Shown here: positions 4,421 to 28,570 of the stretch, piece after piece | Numbering within the stretch: the stretch's first letter is position 1 | Layout: every line of letters begins with the position of its first letter | Origin: a virus | DNA: 37,742 nucleotides | IMG/VR virus record: IMGVR_UViG_3300045741_000353 | Coordinates: 1 to 37,742 of that record | Reading direction: 5' to 3' (one strand) | Notes under the pieces: model-generated | What the model saw: the letters and a program-made list of their open reading frames with translations, nothing else | Told to the model about the DNA's origin: nothing | Databases searched by the model: none | Program-made: the position numbers and the translations under genes

Positions 4421-5143
4421 TTGGCTGTGGCGATAAATCGGCATCAACGCCTTTTGGTGTTTCCAGACCTGCACTGTCCATATCAACATCCAGATGCTGT
4501 TGATTTTCTTGGTGCGCTCAAAAAGAAACATAGACCCACTCGGGTCATAGGCCTAGGGGATGAATCTGATGGCCATGATATTTCTTACCATGAGTCAAAC
4601 CCAGATTTGATGTCAGCTGGATATGAGTTGCGTGCAGCAATCAGGGCTCTTGAGCCGATTTATCGCCTGTTTCCAGAGGTTGATATGATGTGGTCCAATC
4701 ATGGCTCACTCGTTTTTAGAAAAGGCCTAAGTGCAGGCCTCCCCGCTGACGTATTCAAAAGTTATAATGAGATTTATCACGCTCCAAAAGGTTGGGTCTG
4801 GCATCAGGACCTAACTCTTGAATTGCCAAATGGACAATCAGTTTATTTTTGTCATGGTCGCCAAGCCAACGCACTTGGGATGTCTCAAAAACTTGGGATG
4901 TGTACAGTCAATGGTCATTACCACACCCAATTTTCAATCCAAAAATGGTCAACTCCACTCGCCACCAACTGGGCAATGGTCTGTGGTTGCTTGATTGACC
5001 CAAGGTCCAGTGCCTATGCCTATAACCACCTCCAGGTCCTGCGACCAATTCTTGGCGCTGGCGTGATTTTAGATTCACAACCTAGACTTGAATTGATGTT
5101 GCTTGACAAAAGAGGTCGGTGGACAGGCAAACTCTATGGTTAA
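4421..5143 (+). CDS. Calcineurin-like metallophosphoesterase
   Basis: Motifs in order: FPDLHCP (DxH), GLGDESDG (GDxxD), SNHG (GNH[E/D]-like), GHYH. TTG start 4421; GTG 4427 is an alternative. Confidence 0.7.
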   Translation: MAVAINRHQRLLVFPDLHCPYQHPDAVDFLGALKKKHRPTRVIGLGDESDGHDISYHESNPDLMSAGYELRAAIRALEPIYRLFPEVDMMWSNHGSLVFRKGLSAGLPADVFKSYNEIYHAPKGWVWHQDLTLELPNGQSVYFCHGRQANALGMSQKLGMCTVNGHYHTQFSIQKWSTPLATNWAMVCGCLIDPRSSAYAYNHLQVLRPILGAGVILDSQPRLELMLLDKRGRWTGKLYG

Positions 5144-5201
5144 ATGCCTGGACTGGCATATTTTCTGATTTAATGTCATGCTTTTAAATCAAAGGTCACC
5201 G

Positions 5202-5432
5202 ATGCCCAGTAAATCCAACTATGTTAGAACCTTGGAGCATCGCTTAAAATATTTAAAAGAGATTGTACTGCCACAGATGTTGTCAAATGGTGTAAATGTT
5301 AAACCCAACAAAATCCACTGGGTCAAAGCTGATATCGCAGCGCTTGAGTGGGCCATACCGATTTTGAAATTAAAAGTTTTAGGGGATAGGGATTTTTATG
5401 GCAAAAATGGGGCGACCAACCTGCTTAAATAA
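5202..5432 (+). CDS. Hypothetical protein, 76 aa
   Basis: The ORF is open from 5178, but ATG 5202 has AAAGG about 6 nt upstream. It lies directly upstream of the terminase genes. Confidence 0.5.
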   Translation: MPSKSNYVRTLEHRLKYLKEIVLPQMLSNGVNVKPNKIHWVKADIAALEWAIPILKLKVLGDRDFYGKNGATNLLK

Positions 5433-5838
5433 ACAGCTAAAAGAGATTGCAGTTGGCCTAGCCAGAGAAAAAGGTGCAACAATTCGCTCTATTGCTGCCA
5501 AACTTGGAATTGGTAAGTCTACGCTTTATCTGTATTTACAAAAGGATAAAGACTTTTTGGACAATTTAGAAAAGGGCCTTGCTATGGCTGATGATTTAGT
5601 TGAGTTGTCTCTTTTTCGCAGAGCCATAGGTTACACGCATGGTGAGGAAAAAATCTTTTATGACTCTGTCAGAGGCAAAACTGTAAGAGAAAAAACAATC
5701 AGACATTATCCACCATCAGAGGCAGCAATGGCCATGTGGTTAAAGTGTCGCAGGCGTGCTGATTGGGGAGATAAAGCAAACGAGGATGAAACAAAAGACA
5801 TCCCAATTGTGATTGCAAAAGATGAGCAAAATCTTTAA
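5398..5838 (+). CDS. terS: Terminase small subunit (HTH-containing)
   Basis: N-terminal HTH (IRSIAAKLGIGKSTLYLYL). It lies immediately upstream of, and overlaps, the large terminase gene. SD is GGGGATAGGGAT. Confidence 0.65.
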   Translation: MAKMGRPTCLNKQLKEIAVGLAREKGATIRSIAAKLGIGKSTLYLYLQKDKDFLDNLEKGLAMADDLVELSLFRRAIGYTHGEEKIFYDSVRGKTVREKTIRHYPPSEAAMAMWLKCRRRADWGDKANEDETKDIPIVIAKDEQNL

Positions 5839-7096
5839 CCGCACAGAAAAACAAAAACAGCAAACTACAATGCTGTCTGGTCCTCATCGCCACGCGATGT
5901 CTTACGGTGGTTCTAGGTCTGGCAAAACTTTTGGTATTTGCAGAGCCATGATCATTAGAGCAATGAAATGCAAAAGCCGCCACGCAGCTTTACGTTTTAA
6001 ATTCAATCACGCCAAAACATCCCTTTGGTATGAGACATTTCCAAAAGTGTTTGACGTTTGTTTCCCTGGTCTAAAAGTTAATGCAAACAAATCAGATTGG
6101 TTTTATCAGTTGCCAAATGGGTCTGAAATTTGGATTGGTGGCCTTGATGAAAAAGAGCGAGTTGAGAAAATTTTAGGCAAAGAATATTCTACGTTGTTTT
6201 TTAACGAGTGTTCGCAATTGCCATATGGCTCTGTGCAAATTGCGCTCACTCGTTTGGCAGAGCAAAATATTTTAAAAAAACGCGCTTGGTATGATGAAAA
6301 TCCACCGACTAAGCGTCACTGGTCTTACCCTCTTTTTATCAAAGGTCTTGACCCAGATACTTGGGAGCCGCGCAAAGATGCTGATCAATTTACCTCAATG
6401 CTAATGAACCCAGCTGACAACTTAGACAACATTGATTCTGATTATGTCTCTGGTGTGCTTGATAATTTATCAGAGCGTGACAGAAAACGATTTAGGGATG
6501 GTGAGTTTGGTGAGGATGCGAGCGGAAATATTTATCATGCCTTTGATAGAAACATTCACGTTACAAGCTTTGAGCGCGCAAACGTACCTCTCATTTTAGG
6601 CATGGATTTTAACGTCAATCCACTTACTTACACAATTTGTCAAATTGTGGAGGATGAGCTTTGGGTTTTAGATGAGGGATATTTGCAAAACAGTCACACA
6701 GCTGCGGCAGCGGAGGACATCATAAAAAGATATCCTGGACGTTGGACCATCATCCCTGACTCAACTGGTAAAGCTAGAAAAACATCAGCCTCTGGAAAAA
6801 CAGACCATCAGATTTTGCGAGACGCTGGATTTAACGTGCCTTTTGTCCAAAATCCTTTTCGCATGGACCGATACAATGAGGTAAATGCGCTCTTAGAAAA
6901 GAAACGCCTTAAAATTCATCCTCGTTGCGTTAAAACAATCAGAGACCTTGAGCAAGTGAGCTATGCAGAGGGCTCAAACTTACCAGATGAAAAAGACCCG
7001 ATGTTAGTCCATATCTCTGATGCGCTTGGTTATCTGGTTCACTATGCTTTTCCTTTGGTCAAAATTGAGAGTGGTGTTTACATGGTTAACCGATGA
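5822..7096 (+). CDS. terL: Terminase large subunit
   Basis: Walker A GGSRSGKT and Walker B-like LFFNEC. The C-terminal nuclease region has GMDFN. The ORF is open from TTG 5813, but ATG 5822 is preferred. Confidence 0.85.
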   Translation: MSKIFNRTEKQKQQTTMLSGPHRHAMSYGGSRSGKTFGICRAMIIRAMKCKSRHAALRFKFNHAKTSLWYETFPKVFDVCFPGLKVNANKSDWFYQLPNGSEIWIGGLDEKERVEKILGKEYSTLFFNECSQLPYGSVQIALTRLAEQNILKKRAWYDENPPTKRHWSYPLFIKGLDPDTWEPRKDADQFTSMLMNPADNLDNIDSDYVSGVLDNLSERDRKRFRDGEFGEDASGNIYHAFDRNIHVTSFERANVPLILGMDFNVNPLTYTICQIVEDELWVLDEGYLQNSHTAAAAEDIIKRYPGRWTIIPDSTGKARKTSASGKTDHQILRDAGFNVPFVQNPFRMDRYNEVNALLEKKRLKIHPRCVKTIRDLEQVSYAEGSNLPDEKDPMLVHISDALGYLVHYAFPLVKIESGVYMVNR

Positions 7097-7106
7097 GAAT
7101 TAAAGG

Positions 7107-7280
7107 ATGGGACGCTTTATAAAAATAAAAAGGAAAAACCAATGTCGCAAGCACAGATTTAGAAATATCTTTGAGGCGAGACGACAAGCTGACAAACATG
7201 GGATGCGAGCATATCCATGTAATTTGTGCGGTGGCTATCATTTAACGAGTCAAATTTTTAAAAAAGGGGATGTAATTTGA
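7107..7280 (+). CDS. Small basic zinc-finger-like phage protein, 57 aa (below the ORF-track cutoff)
   Basis: Translation: MGRFIKIKRKNQCRKHRFRNIFEARRQADKHGMRAYPCNLCGGYHLTSQIFKKGDVI. The C..H...C..C-GGYHLTS pattern recurs in small phage proteins near packaging genes. The stop overlaps the portal TTG start. Confidence 0.55.
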   Translation: MGRFIKIKRKNQCRKHRFRNIFEARRQADKHGMRAYPCNLCGGYHLTSQIFKKGDVI

Positions 7281-8923
7281 GCAATCCAAATATTCTTGAT
7301 GAGGCAGTTAGAAAAAAAATCATTGATGAGATAGGTGGCTCTGAGAATTTAAGCCGCAAACGATATGAGCAACGTAAATTTGACATTTACAGAAATCGTC
7401 AAGCGGCATATGTGCTTGAGCGTCTATCAGATGAGTTTAGCTCAGACACAGTCCAGAGAATGCGTAAAGTTTTGAGTATCAACCCTTGCAAACGAATCAT
7501 TGATCAATTGGGTTCTATTTATGCTCAAGAGCCAGAGCGACATTTTTCTGGCACAGATGATGGTCCTGAAACTCAAGCTGATGAGAGTATGGAAAAAAAA
7601 CTAGAGGATTTTTATCACTGCAATGGTGTTGACCCTCAGATGAGGCTTGCAAATAGGTATTATAAGCTCTGTGATCAAGCGGCACTTTACATTGTGCCAA
7701 AGCTTGGCAAAATCCAACCAAGGGCTTTGACGCCTAAGGATTATGATGTAATCCCAGATTTCAATGACCCAGAGCAAGCGTTTTGTTATATATTAAATGT
7801 GTTTGATGTGAATCTTTATGGTGTTAGAAACATCCCAGTAAAAGAAAATACAAACAGATACAATCAAAATTCAAGAGTGCCTCAGGATGTTTCAAACGAC
7901 TCGGATAGAGCAAAATTGTTACAACGTTTTGTTTGGTGGACTGATGAGGTCCATTTCACGACTAATGGCTATGGCACTCTGACAGAGGCTGAGGGCATTG
8001 TACCTAATCCAATTAAGCGTTTGCCATTTATTGATATTGCAAATGAAAAGGATTTCCAATTTTTTGTTAGACGTGGAAACAATATTGCTGAGTTTACAAT
8101 TGATTTACTTGTGCAGCTTTGTGACTTGGCTGAGATTTCACGATTGCAAGGATATTCTCAGGCCATCATTTACTCTATTGATGAGCCTAAATCGTTAACG
8201 GTTGGTCCAAATAGGTGCATGTGGATAAAGCAACCAGCTGATGCTCAGGCCTCACAACCTAAATTTGCTTTTGAATCACCAAGTCCAGACCTGGCTAATG
8301 CACTTGAAATTATCAATGTGCAATTAAAAATGTTTTTGTCTAGCAATGGCCTTGATTCATCGGTGGTTAGTGGTGACACGCCAAAGCGTGCATTTACATC
8401 TGGCATTGACCATTTGCTTGCTAACATTGATAAATTTCAAGCAAGCCAAGAGGATGTGGACCTTTTTAGACGTGTTGAAACTGATCTATTTGATATTATG
8501 AGGCTTTGGTCAAATGAATATCAGACAGTGACTGGTGATGACGCCCTTAATGAGGATTTACAGATTGGTATCATCCCAGACACTGTTGAGCTTGAGGTTT
8601 GTTACCCTGAGCCATCTGTGGTTGAAACTAAAAAGGACAAAGAGGATTCGACCATTAAACGTTGGGACAATGATTTATTAACGACTAAGGATGCACTTAA
8701 AGAGCTTTATGAGTTTGATGACATAAAGGCTGATGAATATTTGCTTGAGCTTGCGGCTGACAAAGTTGCAAACCCACGCCCTGCAACTCCAGGTCTTGGT
8801 CAACCAGGTGCAGAGACGCCAATGCAAGCTAATCAGCCACCTCCAGTCAATGGTGCTGACAACAATCCTATGCCTCCAAAGAAACAAGCGCCAAAGGTTA
8901 AACCCGCTCAAGGTGTGCAGTAA
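7277..8923 (+). CDS. Portal protein
   Basis: 548 aa, immediately downstream of terL. TTG start with AAAGGGGAT as SD. The call rests on size and position. Confidence 0.7.
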   Translation: MSNPNILDEAVRKKIIDEIGGSENLSRKRYEQRKFDIYRNRQAAYVLERLSDEFSSDTVQRMRKVLSINPCKRIIDQLGSIYAQEPERHFSGTDDGPETQADESMEKKLEDFYHCNGVDPQMRLANRYYKLCDQAALYIVPKLGKIQPRALTPKDYDVIPDFNDPEQAFCYILNVFDVNLYGVRNIPVKENTNRYNQNSRVPQDVSNDSDRAKLLQRFVWWTDEVHFTTNGYGTLTEAEGIVPNPIKRLPFIDIANEKDFQFFVRRGNNIAEFTIDLLVQLCDLAEISRLQGYSQAIIYSIDEPKSLTVGPNRCMWIKQPADAQASQPKFAFESPSPDLANALEIINVQLKMFLSSNGLDSSVVSGDTPKRAFTSGIDHLLANIDKFQASQEDVDLFRRVETDLFDIMRLWSNEYQTVTGDDALNEDLQIGIIPDTVELEVCYPEPSVVETKKDKEDSTIKRWDNDLLTTKDALKELYEFDDIKADEYLLELAADKVANPRPATPGLGQPGAETPMQANQPPPVNGADNNPMPPKKQAPKVKPAQGVQ

Positions 8924-9681: not shown

Positions 9682-10243
9682 AATCAAGATTGATTCAGCG
9701 CAATTTACTAAGGTCGAGTCACAGTTGCGTGAGGCGGCGACTGATATTTTGTCAGGCTCTGCGCTAAAAAAAGAGGTTGGCGATTTTGCAGTTGAGCGTT
9801 TGAAATTTCAAGCCAGGACTGGCAAACCATTTAATGACAGAAAAGAATTTCCATTGCTGCATGACTCGACCATAGACAAGAGAATTTATTTAGCAAAATA
9901 CAACAAGACCCATCCTACATATGAGGATGGTTTTTCAAACGTGACATTGACTGGTGAGTTTTTAGATTCTCTTGGCTGGCGTGACGAGGGAGGCAGTGGT
10001 GCTTTTTTGTCGCTTGCATTTACTGGTATGCACAAATTTTATGTTGGTGCTAAAGGCCAGAGGATTTCAAAGCCTTTAGGAAATGATACGCTTGCCAAAT
10101 ATTTGGCAGCAAAGGGATTTAAGGTATTTGACGACTCGTTACAAACCAACAAACAATTCATTGGTCGAATCAAAACTATTTGCATGAGATATATTAGACG
10201 GGGGTTGCGTATCCGCAATGCTGTTGAGGATTACGAGGCCTGA
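9671..10243 (+). CDS. Putative head morphogenesis or minor structural protein, 190 aa
   Basis: Lies in the head module. It shares the LTGEFL motif with the 8928 gene. Confidence 0.4.
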   Translation: MPIEIKIDSAQFTKVESQLREAATDILSGSALKKEVGDFAVERLKFQARTGKPFNDRKEFPLLHDSTIDKRIYLAKYNKTHPTYEDGFSNVTLTGEFLDSLGWRDEGGSGAFLSLAFTGMHKFYVGAKGQRISKPLGNDTLAKYLAAKGFKVFDDSLQTNKQFIGRIKTICMRYIRRGLRIRNAVEDYEA

Positions 10244-10299
10244 CTTTTGGCTTGTCAAAATATTTTTGCTTGCGACCAATAAAAAAAGGGGAGATGATT

Positions 10300-10929
10300 A
10301 TGGCTGACGATAAGACAAAAGGTGCCAGTGGCACTGACGATAAAGGCAGCGCCGATATCGACAACGACGACCAGACCTTGGACACCAGTGGTGATAAAGG
10401 TAAAAACAGTGTCGCGTATGAGACTTACCAAAAGACATTAAAAGAGGCAAAGGCAGCAAAGGCCAGGCTCAAAGAGCTAGAGGATAAACTAGCTGCTAGC
10501 GAGAATGACAAGCTGTCTGCTGAGGGCAAAAAAGATGAGTTGATTGCCAAGCTCAGAAAAGATCACGAGACTTTGAGCAAAACGCACAAAGACACGCTCA
10601 ATTCTTTTGTTTTTTCTAGCCTCGACGCACAGGTTAAAGAAAAGGCAGCAAGCCTTGGATGTATTGACTTGGACGCTGTCAGTAAGTTGGTTGATTTGTC
10701 AGACATTGAGGTGGACACAAAGACCTTTAAGGCTGACGAAAAAGCTCTTGTGAGTTTGATTGATGGTTTGAAAAAATCAAAACCATACTTATTTAGTAAG
10801 GTTGGACCAAAGATCAATACTAAGATGCCAAATGGAAAAGCGATTGAGGTCCCGTCTGGAAAAAAATTATCAGAGTTGACTAGGGATGAAATTTGGGCAG
10901 AATTAAGATCGTTAGAACAAAAACAATAG
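10300..10929 (+). CDS. Scaffolding protein (putative)
   Basis: Acidic, coiled-coil-rich protein (KEAKAAKARLKELEDKLAASEND...) lying upstream of the capsid gene, separated from it by the 161-aa gene. The ORF is open from 10252, but ATG 10300 follows GGGGAG. Confidence 0.55.
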   Translation: MADDKTKGASGTDDKGSADIDNDDQTLDTSGDKGKNSVAYETYQKTLKEAKAAKARLKELEDKLAASENDKLSAEGKKDELIAKLRKDHETLSKTHKDTLNSFVFSSLDAQVKEKAASLGCIDLDAVSKLVDLSDIEVDTKTFKADEKALVSLIDGLKKSKPYLFSKVGPKINTKMPNGKAIEVPSGKKLSELTRDEIWAELRSLEQKQ

Positions 10930-10940
10930 GGGGATTTGAA

Positions 10941-11426
10941 ATGAGTAAGTTTTTTATGACATTCACAGCACTGCTTTTGTCGTTTGGCATGAGTCAGGCT
11001 TTTGCAACTCCAAGCACAACCACGGTTGAGAAATCAACTCGTGTGCTGGACCATGGACAAAAGGTTTTGATTTATAAGATTGCATGGACCGCAAGCTCTG
11101 TTGATGGCTCTGTCATCAATTCGACCTTGCCTGGTGTGCATGGGTTTTTGATGAAATCAATTACCAATCCTGGTGCTGTGGCACCAACTGCACTTTATGA
11201 TATTGCAATCAATGATGCTGACGATTCAACTTTGGATGCATCAGCTGGTGTGCTTTCAAATCGTAGCGCAACTGTCACTGAGGCTGTTTATCCAGTTGGT
11301 GCAACTGGCGCTGCACCTCTTTGGTTTCAGCCAGGCAATTACGTTTTGACCATAGCTAACAACTCGGTTAATTCGGCAACTGGTGTGATTTGGCTTTATT
11401 TCTTGGATGATGCCAGCCGTTTCTAA
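10941..11426 (+). CDS. Signal-peptide-bearing protein, 161 aa, between the scaffold and capsid genes (decoration-like position)
   Basis: SD TAGGGGGATTTGAAATG. N-terminus MSKFFMTFTALLLSFGMSQAFA/TPS has n-h-c regions and an A-x-A site. Confidence 0.6.
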   Translation: MSKFFMTFTALLLSFGMSQAFATPSTTTVEKSTRVLDHGQKVLIYKIAWTASSVDGSVINSTLPGVHGFLMKSITNPGAVAPTALYDIAINDADDSTLDASAGVLSNRSATVTEAVYPVGATGAAPLWFQPGNYVLTIANNSVNSATGVIWLYFLDDASRF

Positions 11427-11495
11427 GCGGTTGGTTTAGGGGATTAGTTTTTGTTTTGGTTTTGAGATTTAAAAACTTTTTAAGGGGGATTTAAA

Positions 11496-12350
11496 ATGGC
11501 TGATGCCGGTATAACAAGTAACGCACAATTGACCGCAACTAAAAATGATCTAATCGTAGAGCTTGTGCAGCGCGAGCTAATCTCGCAAGCTGTGCTTGCT
11601 CCAACGGTAATGGACGTAAGTCGCTTTGCCAAAAAAGGTGCGCAAAGCATTGCTTTTCCAAAAGCTGGTAGCTTTATGGTTGAAAATCGCGCCTCTGGTG
11701 TCGCGAGCGTTAAACAGACTTTGTCTTTTGATAAAGACAAAATGGATTTGAGTTTCCGCGCAACTGTTTCTTGGTTGATTGATTCAATGGATGAGATTGA
11801 GTCTATTGTTGACGTAGAGGGTGAGTATGCAGTAAGAGCCGCTCGCGCTCATGCAGTTTATCTTGAGCAACAAATTATTGCTGAGTTGGCAAATGTTGCA
11901 TACAAGATCACTGCCGCCACTGGTGACATCAGTGATGATGCTATTTTAGCAATGCGCAAAACGCTCTTGAACCACAAAGCAAACCGCAATCAGTTGGCAC
12001 TTGCAATCAGTGCTGATCAAGAGGCTGTAATGCTTGGGATTGAGAAATTTGTCTCGGCATTTCAGTATGGCAACAGCCGTATCCCAGAGGGTTCTTTGGG
12101 TCTCATTTACGGGATGCCCGTTTATGTGTCCACTGAGCTTGGAGCTCAAGAGTTTTACGCCTACGAAAAAGAGGGTATTGCGATTGGTTTCCAGCGCGGA
12201 CCCGCTCTTGATGAGCGTAAAGCGCCTGAGTACGGCGCCGGTTCTATGCTCAAGGTGCTTGACCAGAAATTTGGTGTCAAAGGCTTGGCTATTGCTCAAC
12301 AGGGCATGGCAGCTGGCATCAGTGCGCTTGTTGTCTCTGACAACAACTAA
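11496..12350 (+). CDS. Major capsid protein (HK97-fold type)
   Basis: 284 aa after the scaffold gene. Strong SD TAAGGGGGAT, followed by a hairpin. The N-terminal region resembles phage major capsid proteins. Confidence 0.75.
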   Translation: MADAGITSNAQLTATKNDLIVELVQRELISQAVLAPTVMDVSRFAKKGAQSIAFPKAGSFMVENRASGVASVKQTLSFDKDKMDLSFRATVSWLIDSMDEIESIVDVEGEYAVRAARAHAVYLEQQIIAELANVAYKITAATGDISDDAILAMRKTLLNHKANRNQLALAISADQEAVMLGIEKFVSAFQYGNSRIPEGSLGLIYGMPVYVSTELGAQEFYAYEKEGIAIGFQRGPALDERKAPEYGAGSMLKVLDQKFGVKGLAIAQQGMAAGISALVVSDNN

Positions 12351-12364
12351 TCTATTTTTAAAAA

Positions 12365-12406
12365 CCACCAGACTGAGAAATTGGTCTGGTGGACCTGCCA
12401 CTTTTT
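12365..12406 (+). terminator. Hairpin after the capsid gene (possible partial terminator)
   Basis: CCACCAGAC (12365-12373) pairs with GTCTGGTGG (12384-12392), with a 10-nt loop. The T5 run starts only about 10 nt downstream. Confidence 0.35.
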
Positions 12407-12421
12407 ACCTGGAGATAAATT

Positions 12422-12709
12422 ATGCGCATAATTATGTTTGTCTGTGTTTTGCTTGCCTCAATAACAGCATATGCAGCATTTAGGGTTGAGGTGACTGGTA
12501 TTGCTGGATTTCCAGCTGGCGGGTTGACTGGCCAGGTTTTGACTAAAAACTCAGGCACTGATTTTGATTCTAGTTGGACTAATCCTAAATTTGTAATGCT
12601 TGCTGCTGACCCCGGCGCTCCAGCTGAGGGCCAATTTTATTACAACACAGTGGCTCATGTTTTGAAATTTTGGAACGGTACTGCATGGAAAACTGTAACG
12701 ACTAATTAA
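12422..12709 (+). CDS. Small fibre-related protein, 95 aa, with a signal-peptide-like N-terminus
   Basis: MRIIMFVCVLLASITAYA/AF, then the GQVLTK...W..P motif shared with the next gene. The C-terminal GQFYYNT..LKFWNGTAW motif is common in phage fibre proteins. Confidence 0.6.
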   Translation: MRIIMFVCVLLASITAYAAFRVEVTGIAGFPAGGLTGQVLTKNSGTDFDSSWTNPKFVMLAADPGAPAEGQFYYNTVAHVLKFWNGTAWKTVTTN

Positions 12710-14445
12710 TGAGGTTTGATGTGGTTAAATTATTTTTATTGATTTGTTTGATTGTTAGCCAATCTGCATTTGCCACATTTCAAGTTAACCTGATTGGTGG
12801 CGCTCCAGCTGGAGGCACAACTGGTCAAGTACTGACTAAACAGAGCAATACGACTTATGATTACATCTGGGCAACTCCAAGCGGTGGAGGTGGTGGAGTT
12901 AACTGGTCAACTCCAGTAAATGCGAACATTGTCCCAGACGGTGATGCCACTCGAAATATAGGCTCACCGACCTTTAATTTTCTAGATGCAAATGTTCAAA
13001 ATGTTAAAAGTAACGCTTCAATTCATTTAGAGGCCCCGAATTCTCATATTCTATTATTATCTACTGGCGATCAGATTTATTTAAGACCAAAAGATAAAGT
13101 TGAAATTGCTGCGCAGAATGGAACAGTAGGTTCTATTTTTAATTTGTATGATTCAACGCAAGCTAATTCAGTTGGATTTAAATCGCCTGACACATTGGCT
13201 GGCTCTGTTTTATGGACCTTACCGCCAACAGATGGCACTCCAGGGCAAGTTTTATCCACCAATAGCCTTGGAGTTTTATCTTGGGTTAACGCTGGTTCAC
13301 CATCTAATAATCTATCTTTTGGATTTACTGCCACTGGTGGAGCAATAACAGCATCTGGTAATGGGTCAATGGCTCATGGTGATGCTCAAAACAATGCAAC
13401 TATTTTCAGTAGTGGTAATGGGACGTCTGTCCATGGATTAGCCAATAATAGTGGACATATTCAAAGTGGTGATCAGGGTGATTTTGTTTTTGGTATTGCT
13501 GATGGTGGAACTTTAGGTACTGACTCAGGTGCTGTTTTTGTATTTGGACAGGCCAACTCAGGTGGGATTATTGAGGGAGATAATACCGGCTCTGCAACAT
13601 GGGGCATTGTTTCAAATAATGCACAGATTGCATCCAACACAGTTGGCTCTTTAACATTTGGTGTTGCTGATGGAACTGGTACGTTTCTTGGCGCCTCTGG
13701 TGCTGGTGAGGGAGTTTTACAGCATGGGAGTATTGTTGGTGGAGGTTTAATAAATGGAGTTGGGAGTGGTTCATCAGTTTTTGGACGCGCAGAAGGTACA
13801 GGTTCATCCATATCAACAAATGGTCAAGGTGCTTTGGCTCATGGTTGGTCTAGTGAGGGGTTTGCCATAAATGCTGGTGGTAATGGCTCATACATTGGAG
13901 GCATTGCAAGCATAGGACCTCATACCACAACCGGGTTGTCATCTTTTAGTCATGGTGATTCAAACGTTTCAACATCAAGTTTAGGCACAACGTTTGGACT
14001 TTGGAATGTTAATAATACATTTTTGACAACTGTTGTTGGCAGATACGCTAAAACTCCAGCGGCTGGCAATGAGTCGGCGTGGGTTGATACAGACCCTTTA
14101 TTTGTTGTTGGAAATGGGTCTAGCGATGGGGATAGAAAAAGTGCATTTACTGTGATCAAGAATGGTCATGTTGAGCATGGTGGCAACTCGCCAACCCTAA
14201 CCGCGTGTGGGACTGGTGCCACAGTTGTTGGTAATGACGTAGCAGGAAACGTAACCATTGGCGCGGCATACACTGGAAACTGCATTGTGACCTTTAATTC
14301 AGCATGGACTAATCCACCTGTTTGCACGGCTGTTGATAATGTCTCTGGAAATCCTCTCACGGTCATATCGACAACGTCTTTAATTACTATTGATAGCTCT
14401 GGGTCTGCGACATCAATCAATTACCATTGTGTCGGATATCAATAA
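12709..14445 (+). CDS. Fibre or adhesin-like protein, 578 aa, with YadA-head-like (Hep_Hag-type) Gly/Asn/Ser repeats
   Basis: TAATG coupling. Signal-like N-terminus MRFDVVKLFLLICLIVSQSAFA/TF. Degenerate repeats (GNGSMAHGDAQN, GNGTSVHGLANN...). The motif FVVGNGSSDGDRKSAFTVIKNG is typical of trimeric-adhesin heads. Confidence 0.6.
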   Translation: MRFDVVKLFLLICLIVSQSAFATFQVNLIGGAPAGGTTGQVLTKQSNTTYDYIWATPSGGGGGVNWSTPVNANIVPDGDATRNIGSPTFNFLDANVQNVKSNASIHLEAPNSHILLLSTGDQIYLRPKDKVEIAAQNGTVGSIFNLYDSTQANSVGFKSPDTLAGSVLWTLPPTDGTPGQVLSTNSLGVLSWVNAGSPSNNLSFGFTATGGAITASGNGSMAHGDAQNNATIFSSGNGTSVHGLANNSGHIQSGDQGDFVFGIADGGTLGTDSGAVFVFGQANSGGIIEGDNTGSATWGIVSNNAQIASNTVGSLTFGVADGTGTFLGASGAGEGVLQHGSIVGGGLINGVGSGSSVFGRAEGTGSSISTNGQGALAHGWSSEGFAINAGGNGSYIGGIASIGPHTTTGLSSFSHGDSNVSTSSLGTTFGLWNVNNTFLTTVVGRYAKTPAAGNESAWVDTDPLFVVGNGSSDGDRKSAFTVIKNGHVEHGGNSPTLTACGTGATVVGNDVAGNVTIGAAYTGNCIVTFNSAWTNPPVCTAVDNVSGNPLTVISTTSLITIDSSGSATSINYHCVGYQ

Positions 14446-14454
14446 AGGATATTT

Positions 14455-15171
14455 ATGATATGCGGAGTTCTTGAAATTGAAAATACAGTGCAAGTTGGTG
14501 ACAAGACCAGACTTGATGCTGGAAAATCCTTTGTCACAAAGGGCGAGTTGCCTGTTGTAAAGGTTGAGATTTGTCCAGACTTTGCTAATGACCCAACCTT
14601 TATTGATGTGACTGGTGTTGATTTTAGGGACTGGTATTTAGACTGGGTTTACTCTGGAGCGACCAGAGTTGTTACTGTGAAACTTAAAATTCACATAGTT
14701 TTAGATGTGACTTTTTCAATTTTTGATAAAACTCTGCAAATAAATACAGCGGCTGACGATATGCTTTTCTCAAATGACAAAGATTTGACAGCCATTGAGC
14801 CTGATATTTTGAAATGGGTTTCTGATGGCAGGTCATCTTGGCTAAATGTGCATAGATCAGCACAAGAAAAAATCATTGATTGGCTAAACAAATCTGGGAT
14901 TGAGGATGCAGCTGGTAAGGCTTTGACAAAGGTTGATGTAAAAGACGTTGATGAGGTTAGGTTTTGGTCTAGGGATTTGACTTTGGCGCTAATTTTTAAA
15001 AGCATTCAAAATGCTGTTGGCGATGTATTTTCTGAAAAAGCAAAATTCTATTTTGGTGAGGCTGACAAATCAACTCATAGAGCAAAATTGCGACTCGACT
15101 TAAATCATGATGGAACAATTAGTAAATCTGAGGGCGTAGGACTGACATCAGCCGCGCTAATCAGGATATGA
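14455..15171 (+). CDS. Putative head-tail connector or adaptor protein, 238 aa
   Basis: Lies between the capsid/fibre genes and the tail genes. Contains the EF-hand-like loop DLNHDGTISKSE near the C-terminus. Confidence 0.4.
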   Translation: MICGVLEIENTVQVGDKTRLDAGKSFVTKGELPVVKVEICPDFANDPTFIDVTGVDFRDWYLDWVYSGATRVVTVKLKIHIVLDVTFSIFDKTLQINTAADDMLFSNDKDLTAIEPDILKWVSDGRSSWLNVHRSAQEKIIDWLNKSGIEDAAGKALTKVDVKDVDEVRFWSRDLTLALIFKSIQNAVGDVFSEKAKFYFGEADKSTHRAKLRLDLNHDGTISKSEGVGLTSAALIRI

Positions 15172-18959: not shown

Positions 18960-19729
18960 TAAACACATGGTCTAAATTCATTTTTGGCACAACCATTACA
19001 GCAAACAACGCAGATGCTGATTTTAAAGAGGGCATCACATCTTTGTTAGCAACTTTGACTTTAAAATCTAGAACTCTTGGCGAAATAATTGATGATCTTG
19101 AGGCTGAGTTAAATTTAAACAGTTTAAACAACTATGTTGTCACTCTCAATCGCTCAACTGGTAAGGTCACGGTTTCAGGCACATCAAATTTTACAATACC
19201 TCTTTTAACAGGTGCCAATATTGGGACATCCATTTGGCCTCTACTTGGATTTACCTCTGGCATTGATTTAACAGGTGCCAATAGTTATACAGGGACATCA
19301 AGGGCTGGTGTACTTTATTACCCTCAATTTTTACTCCAAAGCTATGTTGGTCCAGATGATTATCAAGTGTCTTATGACCCTATGGTTAACCGCACAGCAA
19401 GCGGTCGCACTGAATTGATTAGATTTGGTGTTGATAAAATGATTGAGTTTGATTTAAAATTCATTACTAATTTGCAAATGGATGGTGTGGTAATAAAAAA
19501 CAACCCATCTGGAGTGCAGTTGGCTCAATCTTTTTTACAAGACATTACGTCTAAATCTAGATTTGAATTTGTACCAGACATTGATAATCCAGCCACATTT
19601 TACAAAGTTGTTTGCGATTCAGTGCCATCTAGCAAGGATGGGACAGGATATCATTTAAAAGAATTGTTTAACCAAGACCTGCCAGGGATTTTTGAGACTG
19701 GCATAATTACGTTGAGAGTGGTGAGCTAA
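18956..19729 (+). CDS. Distal tail or baseplate protein (putative), 257 aa
   Basis: ATGA-coupled to the tape measure gene. The call rests on position. Confidence 0.45.
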   Translation: MINTWSKFIFGTTITANNADADFKEGITSLLATLTLKSRTLGEIIDDLEAELNLNSLNNYVVTLNRSTGKVTVSGTSNFTIPLLTGANIGTSIWPLLGFTSGIDLTGANSYTGTSRAGVLYYPQFLLQSYVGPDDYQVSYDPMVNRTASGRTELIRFGVDKMIEFDLKFITNLQMDGVVIKNNPSGVQLAQSFLQDITSKSRFEFVPDIDNPATFYKVVCDSVPSSKDGTGYHLKELFNQDLPGIFETGIITLRVVS

Positions 19730-20157
19730 TGGCAATTGCTGATGGTCAAAAGGCTAATGCTACAAATTTTAATGCTGCATTTGCTGACAAGAATTTTCAA
19801 ACTCTAGCGGCTGGGACGAATTTCACCATTGCAAACAATGTTTCTAATCAGCCAGTCACTGGTCTTATTTTCAATAAATTAGCCTATCGGTCTGTAAGGA
19901 TTGAGTGGCAGATTTATAGAAAATCAACAGGTGGTGGAGCGCAATTGCGTGTGCAGCGTGGTTGCTTTTTTGTTTGGCATGACGACACCAATTGGACTTT
20001 AACTCAAGATATCTCGTCAGCCACAGATGCTGGCGTTACATTTGATATTGATGCGACAACTGGTCAAATAACTTACACATCTGATAATCAAACTGGCACT
20101 TACAGCCCATCAACTAGCGTTTTAAGTTACCAAATTGTTCACACAATGAGGCTTTAA
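19729..20157 (+). CDS. Tail-associated protein, 142 aa
   Basis: TAATG coupling on both sides. The N-terminus ADGQKANATNFNAAF resembles N-termini of phage fibre or baseplate proteins. Confidence 0.45.
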   Translation: MAIADGQKANATNFNAAFADKNFQTLAAGTNFTIANNVSNQPVTGLIFNKLAYRSVRIEWQIYRKSTGGGAQLRVQRGCFFVWHDDTNWTLTQDISSATDAGVTFDIDATTGQITYTSDNQTGTYSPSTSVLSYQIVHTMRL

Positions 20158-22787
20158 TGAAAAAAATCATTTTAATTTTCTCAATAATTTTTGGTGCCGC
20201 TGTATTTGCAACAATAGACACTCCGACTTTGCCAAATTTAAAATTAAAAAATTTGACAGCAAGTCAAATTACAGCAACTGACGCTAACAAAACTTTTCAA
20301 TCAGTGGCTGTGTCTCCAACTGAATTGCTAAATGTTGCTGGAGTGACATCAAGTTTGTGCGGGATTTCTCAAAGTTGCACTTTAACAAATAAAACTATGA
20401 GCGGAGCTGCAAATACATTTACTAATATCTCACTAACATCATCTGTGACTGGTATTTTACCAGTTGCAAATGGTGGTACAAATTTATCATCTGGCATTAG
20501 TGGTGGTATTTTAGGATTTTCTGCACCTGGAGTTTTAGCGTCTAGTGCATTGCTTGGGACTAATCAAATTGTGCTTGGTGGTGGAGCTGGCGCAACTCCA
20601 ACATCGCTCCCGTCATTAGGTACAGCAACAACATTACTCCATGGTAACGCAGCTGGAGCACCTAGTTTTTCATCTGTATCTTTAACAGCTGATGTAAGTG
20701 GCACTCTGCCGATTGCAAGTGGTGGTACAAATTCAGCCACAGCGCTCAATAACAATAGAGTAATGGTTTCCAGTGCTGGTTCTATTTCTGAGGCCCTGGC
20801 TATTACTGGAAATAAAGCCTTGGCATCAAATGCCTCTGGTATCCCTGTTGCCTCTGCTACAACAGACACTGAATTAGGATTTGTCTCTGGCGTGACATCT
20901 GCGATTCAAACTCAACTCAATGGCAAGCAAGCAACTGGTAATTACATTACAAATCTCACTGGTGATGTCACAGCAACTGGTCCTGGCTCTGTTGCTGCGA
21001 CTTTAGCCAACACAGCTGTAACGCCTGGCTCTTACACTCTTGGGAGTTTTACTGTTGATGCAAAAGGACGGCTAACATCTGCATCAAATGGTACGGCTGT
21101 TACAAGCGTGTCTGCCACAGTGCCTGCATTCCTGTCCATATCTGGAAGCCCCATTACAACTTCTGGGACACTCGCTATAGGGCTTAGTGGCACAGCCTTG
21201 CCTGTTGCTAACGGTGGCACGGGATTAACGGCTGGCACATCTGGAGGCATTCTAGGATACACAGCCACAGGCACTTTGGCCTCAAGTGCTGTTTTGACAG
21301 CTAATCGAATAGTTTTAGGCGGTGGCGCTGGTGCAACGCCTGGTGTTTTAGGTTCACTTGGAACGACTACAACAGTTTTACATGGTAATGCCGCTGGTGC
21401 GCCAACTTTTGGTGCAGTTAGTTTGACTGGTGACGTGAGTGGTACTTTGCCGGTGGCTAACGGTGGCACAAATGTTACATCAGTTACAACAGCGCCAACT
21501 GCCACATCATTTGCTGGATGGGATGCAAACAAAAATTTATCAGCAAATAATTTTATCGCTGGTTACACGACAACAGCAACATCTGGTGGCACAACAACTT
21601 TAACAGCGTCCAGCACATATCAGCAATTTTTTACAGGGACACTAGCTCAAACTGTTGTTTTGCCGGTCACAAGCACACTTGTTTTAGGCGAATCATTTTT
21701 AGTTGCAAACAATAGCACTCAAAATATTACAGTTCAAAGCTCTGGTTTAAACACGATTGCAACTATAGCTAGTGGTGATCAAGGTATTTTCACAGTAATT
21801 TTAACATCTGGTACAACCGCTGCATCATGGGCAAATGATGTTGGCGGTGGTGGCGGCAGTGGTACTGTTACAAGTGTCGCAATGACTGTCCCATCATTTT
21901 TATCAATTGCTGGCAGTCCGATTACAACAGCTGGTACTTTGGCTTTGACTTTAAGCGGGACAGCTTTGCCTGTCACGAGTGGTGGCACTGGTTTGGTGTC
22001 TGGCACAAGTGGAGCAATACCTTACTTTGCTGGAGGCACAACAATTGCCTCATCATCTGTACTTACTCAAAATGCTGTGATGGTTGGTGGTGGAATTGGT
22101 GCTGCGCCAATTACTTTAGCAAGCACTGGCACAGCTGGACAGGTTTTAACAAGCAATGGTTCATCGGCACCATCTTTTCAACAGACTGCCACTGGCGGTG
22201 GTTCATCATTTTTAACATCTGGCACCACTTACACAACTCCAGCAAACATTACCACATCAACTAGATTTAAATTTAAGTTGATTGGAGGTGGTGGTGGAGG
22301 TTCATCAGGTGCAATAAATAGCTATGCAGCTGGTGGCGGCGCTGGTGGTATGATTGATGTTTATTTAACTGGTTTAAATCCTAGCACTAGTTACACAATG
22401 GCAATCGGTGCGGCTGGTGCTGGTGGTGCAGTTGGTTTCTCTGGAGGAAATGGTGGTAATACAACCATTACCATCAACGCAACAACTTACACAGCTGGTG
22501 GCGGCGCTGGCTCTGTTTCCGGTACTCCAGGAACTGGTGGTACAGCAACCGGAGGTACGATAAATGTTGTTGGACAAGCTGGCTCTGGAAACTTTTTTTC
22601 AAATGGTGGAGGCATTGGAGGGAGCACTATATATGGTCCAGGTGGACCATCAAGAGGCACATCTGGAGTTGGGACTAACGCAACTGGGTTTGGTGGTGGA
22701 GGCGGTGGAGGCGTTGGCTCTGGTTCAACAGCTTTTGCTGGAGGCAATGGCACTCAAGGTGCGATATTAGTTGAATATCAAAACTAA
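20157..22787 (+). CDS. Tail fibre protein, 876 aa, with triplicated LPVANGGTG modules and a C-terminal glycine-rich domain
   Basis: Signal-like N-terminus MKKIILIFSIIFGAAVFA/TI. Repeated modules at 20448-20726, 21096-21470 and 21867-22181. The Gly-rich C-terminal domain starts at about 22212. Confidence 0.75.
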   Translation: MKKIILIFSIIFGAAVFATIDTPTLPNLKLKNLTASQITATDANKTFQSVAVSPTELLNVAGVTSSLCGISQSCTLTNKTMSGAANTFTNISLTSSVTGILPVANGGTNLSSGISGGILGFSAPGVLASSALLGTNQIVLGGGAGATPTSLPSLGTATTLLHGNAAGAPSFSSVSLTADVSGTLPIASGGTNSATALNNNRVMVSSAGSISEALAITGNKALASNASGIPVASATTDTELGFVSGVTSAIQTQLNGKQATGNYITNLTGDVTATGPGSVAATLANTAVTPGSYTLGSFTVDAKGRLTSASNGTAVTSVSATVPAFLSISGSPITTSGTLAIGLSGTALPVANGGTGLTAGTSGGILGYTATGTLASSAVLTANRIVLGGGAGATPGVLGSLGTTTTVLHGNAAGAPTFGAVSLTGDVSGTLPVANGGTNVTSVTTAPTATSFAGWDANKNLSANNFIAGYTTTATSGGTTTLTASSTYQQFFTGTLAQTVVLPVTSTLVLGESFLVANNSTQNITVQSSGLNTIATIASGDQGIFTVILTSGTTAASWANDVGGGGGSGTVTSVAMTVPSFLSIAGSPITTAGTLALTLSGTALPVTSGGTGLVSGTSGAIPYFAGGTTIASSSVLTQNAVMVGGGIGAAPITLASTGTAGQVLTSNGSSAPSFQQTATGGGSSFLTSGTTYTTPANITTSTRFKFKLIGGGGGGSSGAINSYAAGGGAGGMIDVYLTGLNPSTSYTMAIGAAGAGGAVGFSGGNGGNTTITINATTYTAGGGAGSVSGTPGTGGTATGGTINVVGQAGSGNFFSNGGGIGGSTIYGPGGPSRGTSGVGTNATGFGGGGGGGVGSGSTAFAGGNGTQGAILVEYQN

Positions 22788-22811: not shown

Positions 22812-23027
22812 ATGGATTTAGTGAAACAAAAATTAGGACCTGAAATTGACTTGTCAATAACAGTCAATGGAGGTGTTTTAGAATTTAAGTTTGAGCGCAA
22901 CAGTCCTAGCGGCACAGAGTCGTTTATTGTGACTGAATCACTCAAATATTTTATCGACAAAGAAAAAGCCAAGCTGCCACCTTGGATGCAAGGTTTGGTA
23001 AATGTGCTTGAGGGAGCTTTGCCCTAA
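22812..23027 (+). CDS. Hypothetical protein, 71 aa
   Basis: ORF track. SD AAAGGGG. TAATG-coupled to the next gene. Confidence 0.5.
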   Translation: MDLVKQKLGPEIDLSITVNGGVLEFKFERNSPSGTESFIVTESLKYFIDKEKAKLPPWMQGLVNVLEGALP

Positions 23028-23401
23028 TGGATAAATCAATTGTCCCAATTGACATTACTGACGTGGTTGAAAAGGCCAGAGCCAGTTTTGTCATTTGGGG
23101 GATTGGTGCTTTAATGTCCTATGCATCAACAGTATCTGGGCTTGGTTGGATATCATGGCCAGTCATTGGTCCTGTTGCTAAATATATTTTGAATGCCATT
23201 TTGACATTTTTATCAAAACAAGCTGTTTTAGAGGCGTTCATTTTAAACACAGCAATCAGAAAATCAGTTCAAGCATCTGATTTTTTGCGTGCTGTTGATT
23301 ATAAAAACTCTTTACCTGAGAATGCGAGCGATGAGGTTTATGACAAAGCAGAGCGCGATGAAATCGAGGCTTTTGTGGCTTTTGCCTCTATTTCTAATTA
23401 A
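23027..23401 (+). CDS. Membrane protein, 124 aa; holin or i-spanin candidate
   Basis: Hydrophobic stretch FVIWGIGALMSYASTVSGLGWISWPVIGPVAKYILNAILTFL (1-2 TM helices), then a charged helical tail. It lies upstream of the endolysin gene. Confidence 0.45.
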   Translation: MDKSIVPIDITDVVEKARASFVIWGIGALMSYASTVSGLGWISWPVIGPVAKYILNAILTFLSKQAVLEAFILNTAIRKSVQASDFLRAVDYKNSLPENASDEVYDKAERDEIEAFVAFASISN

Positions 23402-23792
23402 TTGCACAACAACACCACCTGACATTGCTGTATTTAGATCACTTACACAAAGGCTCAGTCATGACCCATTAAATGGTCATTTGATTTTGACTCCAGACCC
23501 AGTGTGCGAAAAAGAAATAAAAGAAATAGAGTGCGGCTTTGGTGTTTACATAATTAGCAAACGTCGAGTTTTTGTTGGCGAGCAAAAAGAGCATTGGTTT
23601 AAAGGCAAGCCATGGTCACAATTAAAAAAAGAATCGATATTGCTCCCCGCTGTTGAATCATATGCTCCATTATCAAAATACATCATAGATTCTTGTAAAG
23701 AGTTGGGTTGTAATGACCAAGTTGATAGATTTAAAGTGCAGCTTGACCAGTTAAATAATATTGAACCTAATTTAAATCCTAAGGGGGAGTGA
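23358..23792 (+). CDS. Putative lipoprotein, 144 aa, overlapping the 3' end of the membrane-protein gene (o-spanin-like arrangement)
   Basis: MKSRLLWLLPLFLINC is signal-like with a Cys, but Asn at -1 makes the lipobox atypical. The ORF is open from 23289, so the start is ambiguous (23322, 23331, 23340 or 23358). ATGA-type coupling to the endolysin gene. Confidence 0.4.
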   Translation: MKSRLLWLLPLFLINCTTTPPDIAVFRSLTQRLSHDPLNGHLILTPDPVCEKEIKEIECGFGVYIISKRRVFVGEQKEHWFKGKPWSQLKKESILLPAVESYAPLSKYIIDSCKELGCNDQVDRFKVQLDQLNNIEPNLNPKGE

Positions 23793-24439: not shown

Positions 24440-24807
24440 AAAATGTATTTTTGGTAACCATGATGGCCTCTGTTTTAACAGCTTGCCCTGGTTCTAATCC
24501 AGTTTGCGAGACTGGAAAAATTTTAGCCAAGCCTTTGTCGGTGGCTATGGCTCAGATTGCAGATTGCAAGGTGCCATCTGAGCTTGAATCTTGGATGACA
24601 GAACAGCTTGTTATTTTAAAAGTTTGCTCACCTCCAACTGGTATTGGTGCCAATGGTTACATTGGTGATATTGTTTGCCCTCTTGTGGTGGACAGAATCA
24701 TTGGCGTTGGTATTTCTAAATTACCAGCCAAGGCTCAATGCTCTGGTGGTAAGATTGCAGATGGTGCAAAAGAAAAGCTAATGGCAGTTTGTAAAGGTGC
24801 AATTTAA
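24436..24807 (+). CDS. Cys-rich lipoprotein, 123 aa
   Basis: MKNVFLVTMMASVLTAC has the lipobox L-T-A-C. The full protein has 8 Cys (7 remain after cleavage at the lipobox Cys). SD TAGGGGGGAT. ATGA-coupled to the endolysin gene. Confidence 0.6.
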   Translation: MKNVFLVTMMASVLTACPGSNPVCETGKILAKPLSVAMAQIADCKVPSELESWMTEQLVILKVCSPPTGIGANGYIGDIVCPLVVDRIIGVGISKLPAKAQCSGGKIADGAKEKLMAVCKGAI

Positions 24808-28520: not shown

Positions 28521-28570
28521 CAACCAGAGTTACTTGATTCTAGGGGATAAAGTGGCTCTGGTTGTTTTTT
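28521..28570 (+). terminator. Hairpin plus T6 at the convergence point of the two arms
   Basis: CAACCAGAG (28521-28529) pairs with CTCTGGTTG (28556-28564), followed by TTTTTT. The 26-nt loop is long for a canonical terminator. Confidence 0.45.

Follow-up and report, generated by a model that had tools for sequence, protein, structure and literature searches.

Predicted signal peptides on four late gene products

The 37,742-nucleotide (nt) stretch of viral DNA analyzed here in its entirety (the window; IMG/VR record IMGVR_UViG_3300045741_000353) comes from an uncultured, tailed, siphovirus-like phage of 37.6 kb. In its late structural operon, four genes, coding for proteins of 161 and 95 amino acids (aa), a 578-aa fiber-like protein and an 876-aa fiber protein, each open with a predicted canonical, cleavable Sec-type signal peptide in which n, h and c regions are recognizable (Table 1). 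These signals had been called in a sequence-only reading of the window, whose four N-termini and coordinates are reproduced exactly by translation. Assembly of tailed phages is, by the textbook account, wholly cytoplasmic. The evidence set out below makes it very probable that the four proteins are exported by the Sec system and cleaved by signal peptidase I.

All four n-regions carry one or two K/R within the first seven residues, the hydrophobic cores have mean Kyte–Doolittle (KD) values of 2.0–2.8, and the signals (18, 18, 22 and 22 residues long) end in the −3/−1 sites AFA/T, AYA/A, AFA/T and VFA/T. None of the four has Pro at +1, a Cys at the cut as in a lipobox, or the RR of a Tat twin-arginine signal in its N-terminus. 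The predicted mature forms would begin with TPSTTTVEK (161-aa), AFR (95-aa), TFQVNLIGGAPAGGTTGQVLTK (578-aa, TFQVNLIGG..) and TIDTPTLPNLK (876-aa).

Shine–Dalgarno-like GGGGGA, GGAG or GAGG elements lie 5–8 nt upstream of three of the four ATG starts; the ATG at 12709 overlaps the stop of the 95-aa gene as TAATG, and the start of the 876-aa gene overlaps the stop of a conserved gene for a 142-aa protein. Public assemblies, with gene calls made independently, have the same starts, which argues against the signals being an artefact of mis-called starts, or functionless hydrophobic N-termini that arose by chance. The home-made, rule-based scan behind our calls (net positive n-region; uncharged core spanning 9 or more residues and averaging at least 1.9 in KD; small-residue −3/−1 site at residues 13–36) does produce false positives: among the 53 greedily called genes of the window it flagged the four signal genes, two lipobox proteins of the lysis cassette and, wrongly, the endolysin. 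Against this, in control loci from sister clades, fetched by capsid similarity only, it flagged 2 of 133 plus-strand genes, neither of which was a type I site on a structural protein. This control was used instead of a shuffled-N-terminus null, which is a poor one, as the hydrophobic composition survives shuffling. With the slot-by-slot conservation in relatives, and with the junction coincidence and cysteine parity across hundreds of homologues (see below), the control rate bears out the earlier argument that a fourfold repetition is not accidental; the comparative data effectively refute chance or artefact, which we consider wildly improbable.

The designation of the four as products of a virion module also has support, from Pfam and PHROG matches on the neighbors of their genes and on the 95-aa and 876-aa proteins themselves. 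After its signal, the 95-aa protein displays two short fiber-type motifs, GGxTGQVLTK..D..W and GQFYYNT..LKFWNGTAW, and it matches PHROG families annotated as tail fiber or virion structural protein. Its N-terminal 56 residues, signal included, are 45% identical to those of the 578-aa protein, in which the signal gives way to a GQVLTK motif, to Gly-rich repeats resembling those of homologues with YadA-head-type domains, and to a C-terminal domain with four Cys residues. The nearest homologues of the 578-aa protein are signal-less; signals or lipoboxes are present in its cellular relatives from Bacteroidota and Spirochaetota. The 876-aa protein combines a Cys68-x5-Cys74 loop, repeated “LPVANGGT” units and a C-terminal Gly_rich_2 tip domain (PF21722, E = 1.1e-8, above the curated cut-off), and belongs with PHROG tail-fiber families. 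Its C-terminal domain (residues about 689–875) matches the tail fiber of the cyanophage Pam3 (7ypx/7yfw, E = 2e-4), which has been solved in the virion.

A reading of the four genes as morons was considered and rejected: they are tightly packed, with gaps of 12, 70 and 72 nt to neighbor genes or outright overlaps; a promoter/terminator scan sets none of them apart, promoter-like sites being no more frequent than in shuffles (55 vs 43 ± 6.5); and an integrase is absent among the open reading frames (ORFs) tested. One aspect of the arrangement is cargo-like, namely that the four genes sit in variable slots.

Table 1. Positions of the features of the window discussed in the text
Feature	Positions	Strand	Basis or remarks
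161-aa protein	10941-11426	+	signal residues 1-22, nt 10941-11006, MSKFFMTFTALLLSFGMSQAFA/TP, predicted cut AFA/TP
95-aa protein	12422-12709	+	signal residues 1-18, nt 12422-12475, MRIIMFVCVLLASITAYA/AF, predicted cut AYA/AF
578-aa fiber-like protein	12709-14445	+	signal residues 1-22, nt 12709-12774, MRFDVVKLFLLICLIVSQSAFA/TF, predicted cut AFA/TF
876-aa fiber protein	20157-22787	+	signal residues 1-18, nt 20157-20210, MKKIILIFSIIFGAAVFA/TI, predicted cut VFA/TI
Direct repeat, 127 nt	1-127 and 37616-37742		identical copies
Terminase large subunit	5813-7096	+	family match
Portal-sized gene	7277-8923	+	gene size and order
Scaffold, 209-aa protein inside ORF	10252-10929	+	Pfam Phage_scaffold on gene call of identical Logan contig
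Major capsid protein, 284 aa	11496-12350	+	PHROG major head protein, E = 1e-15; weak Phage_capsid_4
Hairpin	12365-12392	+	ΔG −19.5 kcal/mol, z = −3.8, 0/200 shuffles as stable
Conserved 142-aa protein	19729-20157	+	weak tail-fiber PHROG match; signal peptide absent
Lysis cassette	23027-24807	+	between 876-aa fiber gene and remaining tail genes (748-aa first)
Holin-like protein	23027-23401	+	lysis cassette; two transmembrane domains
Lipobox protein (LFLIN/C)	about 23340-23792	+	overlaps 3′ end of holin-like gene
GH25 muramidase (endolysin)	23789-24439	+	family match
Second lipobox protein (VLTA/C)	24436-24807	+	lysis cassette
748-aa tail protein	24808-27054	+	signal-less; PHROG tail-fiber match
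270-aa Gly-rich protein	27076-27888	+	signal-less; short tip/fiber look by eye; no Pfam/PHROG family
GH46 chitosanase	28569-29246	−	Pfam E = 4e-45; signal peptide absent
TAACCG hexamer array	29247-29391		about 24 copies
52-codon ORF containing the array	29246-29404	−	would encode a Gly/Tyr-rich repeat
S8 subtilase	31089-32399	−	N-terminal transmembrane segment; Pro/Thr-rich linker
Dual-specificity protein phosphatase	33558-33995	−	
C92 (YiiX-type) amidase	36045-36617	−	

Retention of the signals in close relatives

The sequence-only reading had asked whether related phages keep the signals. In the close relatives of the phage, which form with it a sub-clade of roughly 37-kb genomes, each slot has its signal, including those now filled by a different mature protein. 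Two of these genomes (L010 and L011) code for an orthologue of the 161-aa protein that is 52% identical and bears the signal SSQAFA/VA, and in both the post-capsid slot is occupied by a different, 122-aa gene that is likewise signal-led (LSLA/LS). In a third (L018), the counterpart of the 161-aa protein is a 163-aa orthologue with 70% identity (FAFA/TA), and the capsid gene is followed by that for a 162-aa orthologue of the 95-aa protein, whose signal PSFA/AFKVEVIG leads into ..GGTTGQ. Its fiber slot features a different, 1027-aa fiber starting with MNKLFLFLYILFFSAVVFA/VAP (signal VVFA/VAP). The 142-aa proteins of the window and L018 are 65% identical, whereas the fibers encoded downstream of each differ. 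Signals near the capsid gene were not seen in more distant relatives (36–60% identity). The capsid protein of the window has relatives at 58–63% identity; in L001, L004 and L005 (capsids 59–63% identical) the gap between the scaffold and capsid genes is empty and unrelated signal-less genes come after the capsid gene.

When nine orthologues of the 161-aa protein are compared, identity is only 26% in the signal region, as against 61% in the mature part, and yet each signal has one K/R residue, a core whose KD is 2.2 or more, a length of 18–26 residues, and Ala invariant at −3 and −1. From this invariance of the −3/−1 Ala while the core drifts, we infer that selection is for a cleaved signal function and not for a particular sequence or a membrane anchor. 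The latter had been one of the explanations offered in the sequence-only reading, with the hydrophobic N-termini serving as uncleaved signal-anchors that tether fibers or decoration proteins to the inner membrane for assembly or sequestration. The h-region alone fails to separate a signal from an anchor, and the AlphaFold model of the 161-aa protein has a predicted helix at residues 2–14. However, besides the invariant Ala residues, the lengths are those of typical signals, signal-less homologues start precisely at the predicted cut (see below), and even a periplasm-facing anchor would leave the protein outside the cytoplasm. Hence, we regard anchoring as very improbable. Of the earlier interpretation, then, the Sec signals on virion-module proteins stand and the anchor explanation is disfavored.

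Signal-bearing and signal-less forms of the β-sandwich family

The 161-aa protein belongs to a large family of proteins from uncultured phages, for which an exhaustive HMMER search recovered 831 cluster representatives, such representatives being the units of all our family samples. An AlphaFold2 model based on 133 family sequences (predicted local distance difference test score 93) shows the above-mentioned helix followed by an eight-stranded β-sandwich of the jelly-roll type. This fold weakly matches a small, 126-residue chain of the Helicobacter phage KHP30 capsid structure (7dn2_1; template-modeling scores 0.45/0.54, E = 7e-3) as well as carbohydrate-binding modules (CBMs); matches in BFVD, which holds viral predicted structures, were to uncharacterized proteins of uncultured phages only. 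The position of the gene varies, being head-proximal in some phages and tail-distal in the siphovirus L029 (IMGVR_UViG_3300035131_000031), where the gene for a signal-bearing member follows those for the tail tip. Run on GTDB genomes, a degenerate DNA pattern for the sandwich motif further uncovered three signal-less members in metagenome-assembled genomes of Dehalococcoidia, Actinomycetes and Solibacteraceae; these adjoin capsid and connector genes in prophage-like regions, an arrangement also seen in a podovirus-like contig. A separate case is a 4677-aa protein (P0298) with 23 matches to the sandwich domain and an apparent N-terminal signal, a hydrophobic stretch ending in LFAQE that our scan did not flag; the domain is thus probably also present in cellular surface proteins.

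Among the 244 full-length members, 147 are signal-bearing, 82 signal-less and 15 ambiguous. The signal-less members begin with MAGT, MAGS or, more generally, an (M)AGTVT-type start, 72 of the 82 fitting the pattern M-A/P-G/S/N-T/S, and in 133 of the 147 signal-bearing members a −3/−1 site immediately precedes the same [A]G[TS]VT motif. The predicted cut falls family-wide at residue 20.8 ± 3.3, with Ala (84) or Gly (22) at −1 and Ala (65) or Val (15) at −3. Met-1 is removed before Ala. Since the signal-less start coincides with the predicted cut, removal of Met-1 in the one form and of the signal in the other would leave the same mature N-terminus by either route; the mature lengths are also alike (132 vs 134 residues). 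These states have changed often: on a tree of the mature domain we count at least 37 gains or losses, compared with 67 ± 3 for random labels, and two members in opposite states share up to 78% identity.

The two states can also differ between adjacent genes. At 5001–8204 of the locus L012 and 9702–11887 of L021, the sandwich protein is signal-less and the fiber encoded directly downstream is signal-bearing; therefore, as judged from these predicted signals, the export route is set gene by gene and not genome by genome.

Cysteine parity follows the signal

An independent line of evidence comes from the cysteines of the sandwich family. The signal-bearing members that contain Cys have an even number in 43 cases (always exactly two) and an odd number in 33, whereas the corresponding figures for the signal-less members are 8 and 43 (Fisher p = 3e-6), with no difference in mean Cys content between the two forms (Mann–Whitney p = 0.62). 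Certain pairs recur in the signal-bearing forms only, namely (90,134) seven times, (68–71,126) eight times and (26/27,49) five times; in the modeled hairpin 26–35/41–50, positions 27 and 49 would be placed in exact cross-strand register. The fiber family displays the same trend, with 17 even to 9 odd in the presence of a signal as against 27 to 42 in its absence. The mature 161-, 95-, 578- and 876-aa proteins of the window have 0, 0, 4 and 2 Cys residues, respectively.

DsbA-type oxidation takes place in the periplasm. The paired Cys residues of the signal-bearing forms fit folding in such an oxidizing compartment, and their occurrence at several different positions points to the repeated evolution of putative disulfides, which is expected only there.

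Signal-bearing fibers in other phages

For the 876-aa protein, the repeats drive the number of homologues to more than 3,400, most of them on contigs of phage size; signal-like N-termini are found in 28 of the best 119. In five of these 28, the signal is prefixed to the N-terminal motif “kIs.LPa...l.G.e..P.vq.g.t.k”, which in seven signal-less homologues starts at residues 3–5. A second N-terminal type, “VTVNGS..tIPq..e..WG”, is prefixed in the same manner in L012, L021 and L022.

The gene contexts of these signal-bearing fibers are unmistakably structural. In an E217-like myovirus, the gene for the fiber P0033 has the sheath-initiator gene on one side and the wedge genes on the other; this phage also codes for a signal-bearing Phage Tail Collar-domain protein and has a third signal-bearing gene. 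Another, P0037, lies between an Mtd_N gene and the sheath gene and is followed by a lipoprotein gene. In the above-mentioned L029, an unrelated siphovirus, seven consecutive signal-bearing genes (9917–15020; 155, 71, 675, 163, 271, 120 and 233 aa) are placed directly downstream of the tape-measure and tail-tip genes. Separately, runs of four signal-bearing genes were observed in L033 and L036, and smaller clusters in L035, L037 and L040.

Signal prefixing spans phages with GC contents of 0.40 to 0.58 and different architectures. Going beyond the sequence-only reading, the predicted signals on such proteins amount to a phenomenon that is widespread and evolutionarily labile across uncultured phages.

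Genomic context and host

Identical 127-nt direct repeats bound the window, which marks the contig as a complete genome (37,615 bp) that is circularly closed or else terminally redundant. The identical contig has been recorded by the Joint Genome Institute (JGI) and in a Logan assembly (SRR35487356). The stop of the scaffold gene lies 12 nt before the 161-aa gene, and after the capsid gene the plus-strand late order runs: 95-aa, 578-aa, two conserved connector-sized genes, 302-aa, two small genes, 610-aa, 257-aa, the conserved 142-aa, the 876-aa fiber, the lysis cassette, 748-aa and 270-aa. Assignments by family match are limited to the scaffold, capsid, terminase, 876-aa fiber, GH25 and 748-aa products; the others follow gene size and order, by which the 302-aa, 610-aa and 257-aa proteins would take the tail-tube, tape-measure and distal-tail positions, respectively. 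A BLASTP comparison of the 270-aa protein with the tip of the 876-aa fiber was uninformative owing to composition.

A short T run comes 9 nt after the hairpin, which itself lies immediately 3′ of the capsid gene, before the 95-aa gene. Such a position is usual for attenuation, the capsid protein being the most abundant structural product, and the hairpin may be a partial terminator that lowers downstream expression and sets the ratio of capsid to accessory proteins.

The minus-strand early region codes for an AAA_24 ATPase, a VapE-like primase/helicase and a DUF2800 nuclease; the window has no tRNA genes. The early region also contains an accessory set unusual for a 37-kb phage, comprising the S8 subtilase, the dual-specificity phosphatase and the C92 amidase. 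Another unusual phage enzyme is the GH46 chitosanase, encoded in addition to the GH25 endolysin; it may point to a de-N-acetylated wall glycan in the host. Between the chitosanase gene and that for a DUF6948 protein lies the TAACCG array, which may be a contingency-type or a low-complexity coding repeat.

The sequence-only reading had also considered an unusual compartment in the host. The signals might then reflect an uncommon cell plan, for example a periplasm of increased size, or life inside other cells or as a predator, with decoration taking place in a non-cytoplasmic compartment. The chitosanase, subtilase and phosphatase lend this some color. However, signal prefixing across phages of such different GC contents and architectures is not tied to one host, and the lysis cassette resembles that of an ordinary diderm, as its two lipobox proteins suggest. 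No clear i-spanin was recognized in it. Searches for cultured relatives and prophages gave no host assignment. Among cultured phages, no match was retrieved by megablast of 15 kb or by tblastn, either of the 161-aa protein or of P0165, a signal-less member of its family; the 876-aa fiber and its signal-bearing relative P0033 gave only short repeat matches there, and terminase matches, about 30% identical, were in Vibrio phages. A capsid-profile scan of GTDB genomes found no prophage relatives, and scans of viral and metagenome collections with the Dit-like protein produced no matches. We therefore see little to recommend an unusual host, and rate it as very improbable.

A possible route from the periplasm to the virion

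Frequent and nearly neutral switching of route with an unchanged mature protein implies that these proteins act where both routes would deliver them, i.e., outside the cytoplasm once lysis has started. We propose that the four proteins are made late from the structural operon, exported unfolded by Sec, cleaved at A/V-x-A by signal peptidase I, and folded in the periplasm, where disulfide bonds could form. They would represent periplasm-routed peripheral modules of the virion, i.e., a decoration-type β-sandwich and trimeric fibers, which other phages make in the cytoplasm, and their site of action would be outside the cytoplasm after the onset of lysis. Once the holin opens the inner membrane, they would meet the otherwise complete cytoplasmic particles and dock on heads and tails as the last step, before or as the outer membrane fails. 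Export is thus compatible with a role in the virion, in that a breach of the inner membrane allows peripheral proteins to be added at this late stage. The lesions that canonical holins open in the inner membrane are very large and precede the spanin step, and in vitro, finished particles can take up the T4 fibers, T4 Hoc and Soc, or lambda gpD. By analogy, holin lesions and such unaided binding could allow periplasmic accessories to meet particles at a high local concentration. Docking is further favored by the conserved fiber N-termini that are kept after the cut and the placement in baseplate or neck modules in other phages, as well as by the homology of the 876-aa tip domain to a fiber in a solved virion.

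Several points weigh against this proposal. The signal calls are heuristic, resting as they do on a rule-based scan; the family tree is a distance tree, a UPGMA (unweighted pair group) approximation; and the Fisher tests treat members as independent, ignoring their shared ancestry. The signal-bearing genes occupy variable cargo slots that sister clades fill with unrelated signal-less genes or leave empty. After the cut, the 876-aa and 578-aa proteins lack a recognizable N-terminal domain for docking on the virion. The phage also has signal-less 748-aa and 270-aa tail proteins, which might suffice for adsorption, and docking after the mixing of compartments would be less efficient than assembly in the cytoplasm.

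Some of these points also speak for the main alternative, considered too in the sequence-only reading, that the four proteins are exported and cleaved but never borne by the virion, being instead periplasmic, envelope-bound or released fiber-like and CBM-like proteins. As such they could mask or bind receptors and so exclude superinfection, prevent the loss of progeny on debris, or act as adhesins or decoys. The differently filled slots, the unrecognized docking domains and the presence of signal-less tail proteins are all consistent with this, as are the adjacency of the 876-aa gene to the lysis cassette, the seven-gene run after the tail-tip genes of L029, and the signals or lipoboxes on the Bacteroidota and Spirochaetota relatives of the 578-aa protein. 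There are precedents in Lom and Bor of lambda, Cor, and Llp of T5, encoded beside tail genes. Bdellovibrio displays signal-bearing phage-tail-fiber-like proteins on its surface (PMC10769870). On the other hand, the genes of the window are translationally coupled late genes without moron-like signals, and since no integrase was found, lysogenic conversion is unlikely. The frequent switching of state, with an identical mature N-terminus and identities of up to 78%, suggests one function reached by either route; other signal-bearing fibers keep their fiber N-terminal motifs and are encoded inside baseplate modules; and a periplasmic trimeric fiber would have no evident path to outer-surface receptors before lysis. 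On balance, a role outside the virion is a serious contender, but a doubtful one.

We accordingly prefer the proposal of exported, cleaved, late-docking virion modules as the best explanation of the observations as a whole, if a tentative one that falls a little short of an even prospect. Its final step, docking on the virion, is held with somewhat greater reserve still, though we favor it over a role outside the virion. The most general version, two-compartment assembly, is more speculative and at present rather doubtful: heads and tails would be built in the cytoplasm; fibers and decoration proteins would be exported, cleaved, oxidatively folded and added when the holin merges the compartments; and lineages would often switch between the routes (at least 37 times in one family), gaining disulfide-stabilized parts in the process.

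Comparison with known systems

Sec signals are familiar on phage proteins, namely on secreted and signal-anchor-release (SAR) endolysins, antiholins, exclusion lipoproteins and the coats of filamentous phages. In full-text literature searches we found no description of cleavable signals on fiber- or decoration-type proteins of tailed phages, or of families that toggle between the two routes, which is no proof of absence. Lom and Bor of lambda, Cor of phi80, N15 and HK022, and Llp of T5 are exported proteins or lipoproteins encoded beside tail genes. They share with the proteins of the window their phage origin, a Sec-type or lipoprotein signal, and a gene in or near the tail and host-recognition module, and they act at the envelope. 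However, these are small proteins of the outer membrane or lipoproteins, bear no relation to parts of the virion, and often stem from morons that have a promoter of their own and are expressed from the prophage; the proteins of the window, in contrast, include large ones, are homologous to fibers or to a decoration-type domain, and are coupled to late structural genes in a genome where no integrase was found.

Among virion proteins, g3p and g8p of the filamentous phages have cleavable Sec signals and are assembled outside the cytoplasm, but in a non-tailed, extruded virus with membrane assembly; the present phage has an HK97-type capsid, a tape-measure tail and a lysis cassette. The T4 long tail fibers, Hoc and Soc, and lambda gpD bind completed particles unaided, as post-export docking would require, but are cytoplasmic and signal-less; to our knowledge, a separation of compartments has not been described for any of them. 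PblA and PblB of the Streptococcus mitis phage SM1 are tail-fiber-type phage proteins that also work on the bacterial surface; unlike the proteins of the window, they lack a signal peptide and reach the surface by phage lysis and re-binding, in a monoderm host. The Pam3 fiber, of 280–289 aa, shares its C-terminal domain with the 876-aa protein, to which the latter adds the signal and about 670 aa of repeats.

A parallel in organization is the MAT family of Bdellovibrio bacteriovorus, in which a signal peptide precedes a trimeric, tail-fiber-like fiber with swappable C-terminal tips that is displayed on the surface (PMC10769870). Here too the signal is followed by a fiber, and some homologues of the window proteins also carry an S74 chaperone domain; by analogy, the MATs show that such fibers can fold after Sec export. 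They differ in being encoded by chromosomal genes of a predatory bacterium and in that the signal is followed, in all of them, by a conserved β-rich domain of about 130 aa at the N-terminus (PMC10769870), whereas the window proteins are products of phage late genes. A PDB sequence search with the 578-aa and 876-aa proteins retrieved no MAT entries, the Pam3 fiber being the only match among solved structures.

Implications

If the exported accessories do reach the particles, the lysis pathway would double as the final step of assembly, and periplasmic chemistry, including disulfides and perhaps glycosylation, would be open to virions. Docking on the virion, if true, would affect the annotation of structural genes, the recombinant expression of receptor-binding proteins and phage engineering. 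If, alternatively, the proteins are not borne by the virion, phages would commonly spend late-gene capacity on large, exported, fiber-like proteins, which would constitute a new class of factor at the phage–host interface. Either way, the occurrence of the same mature protein with or without a signal offers a natural experiment at the level of the family and a simple marker for mining metagenomes.

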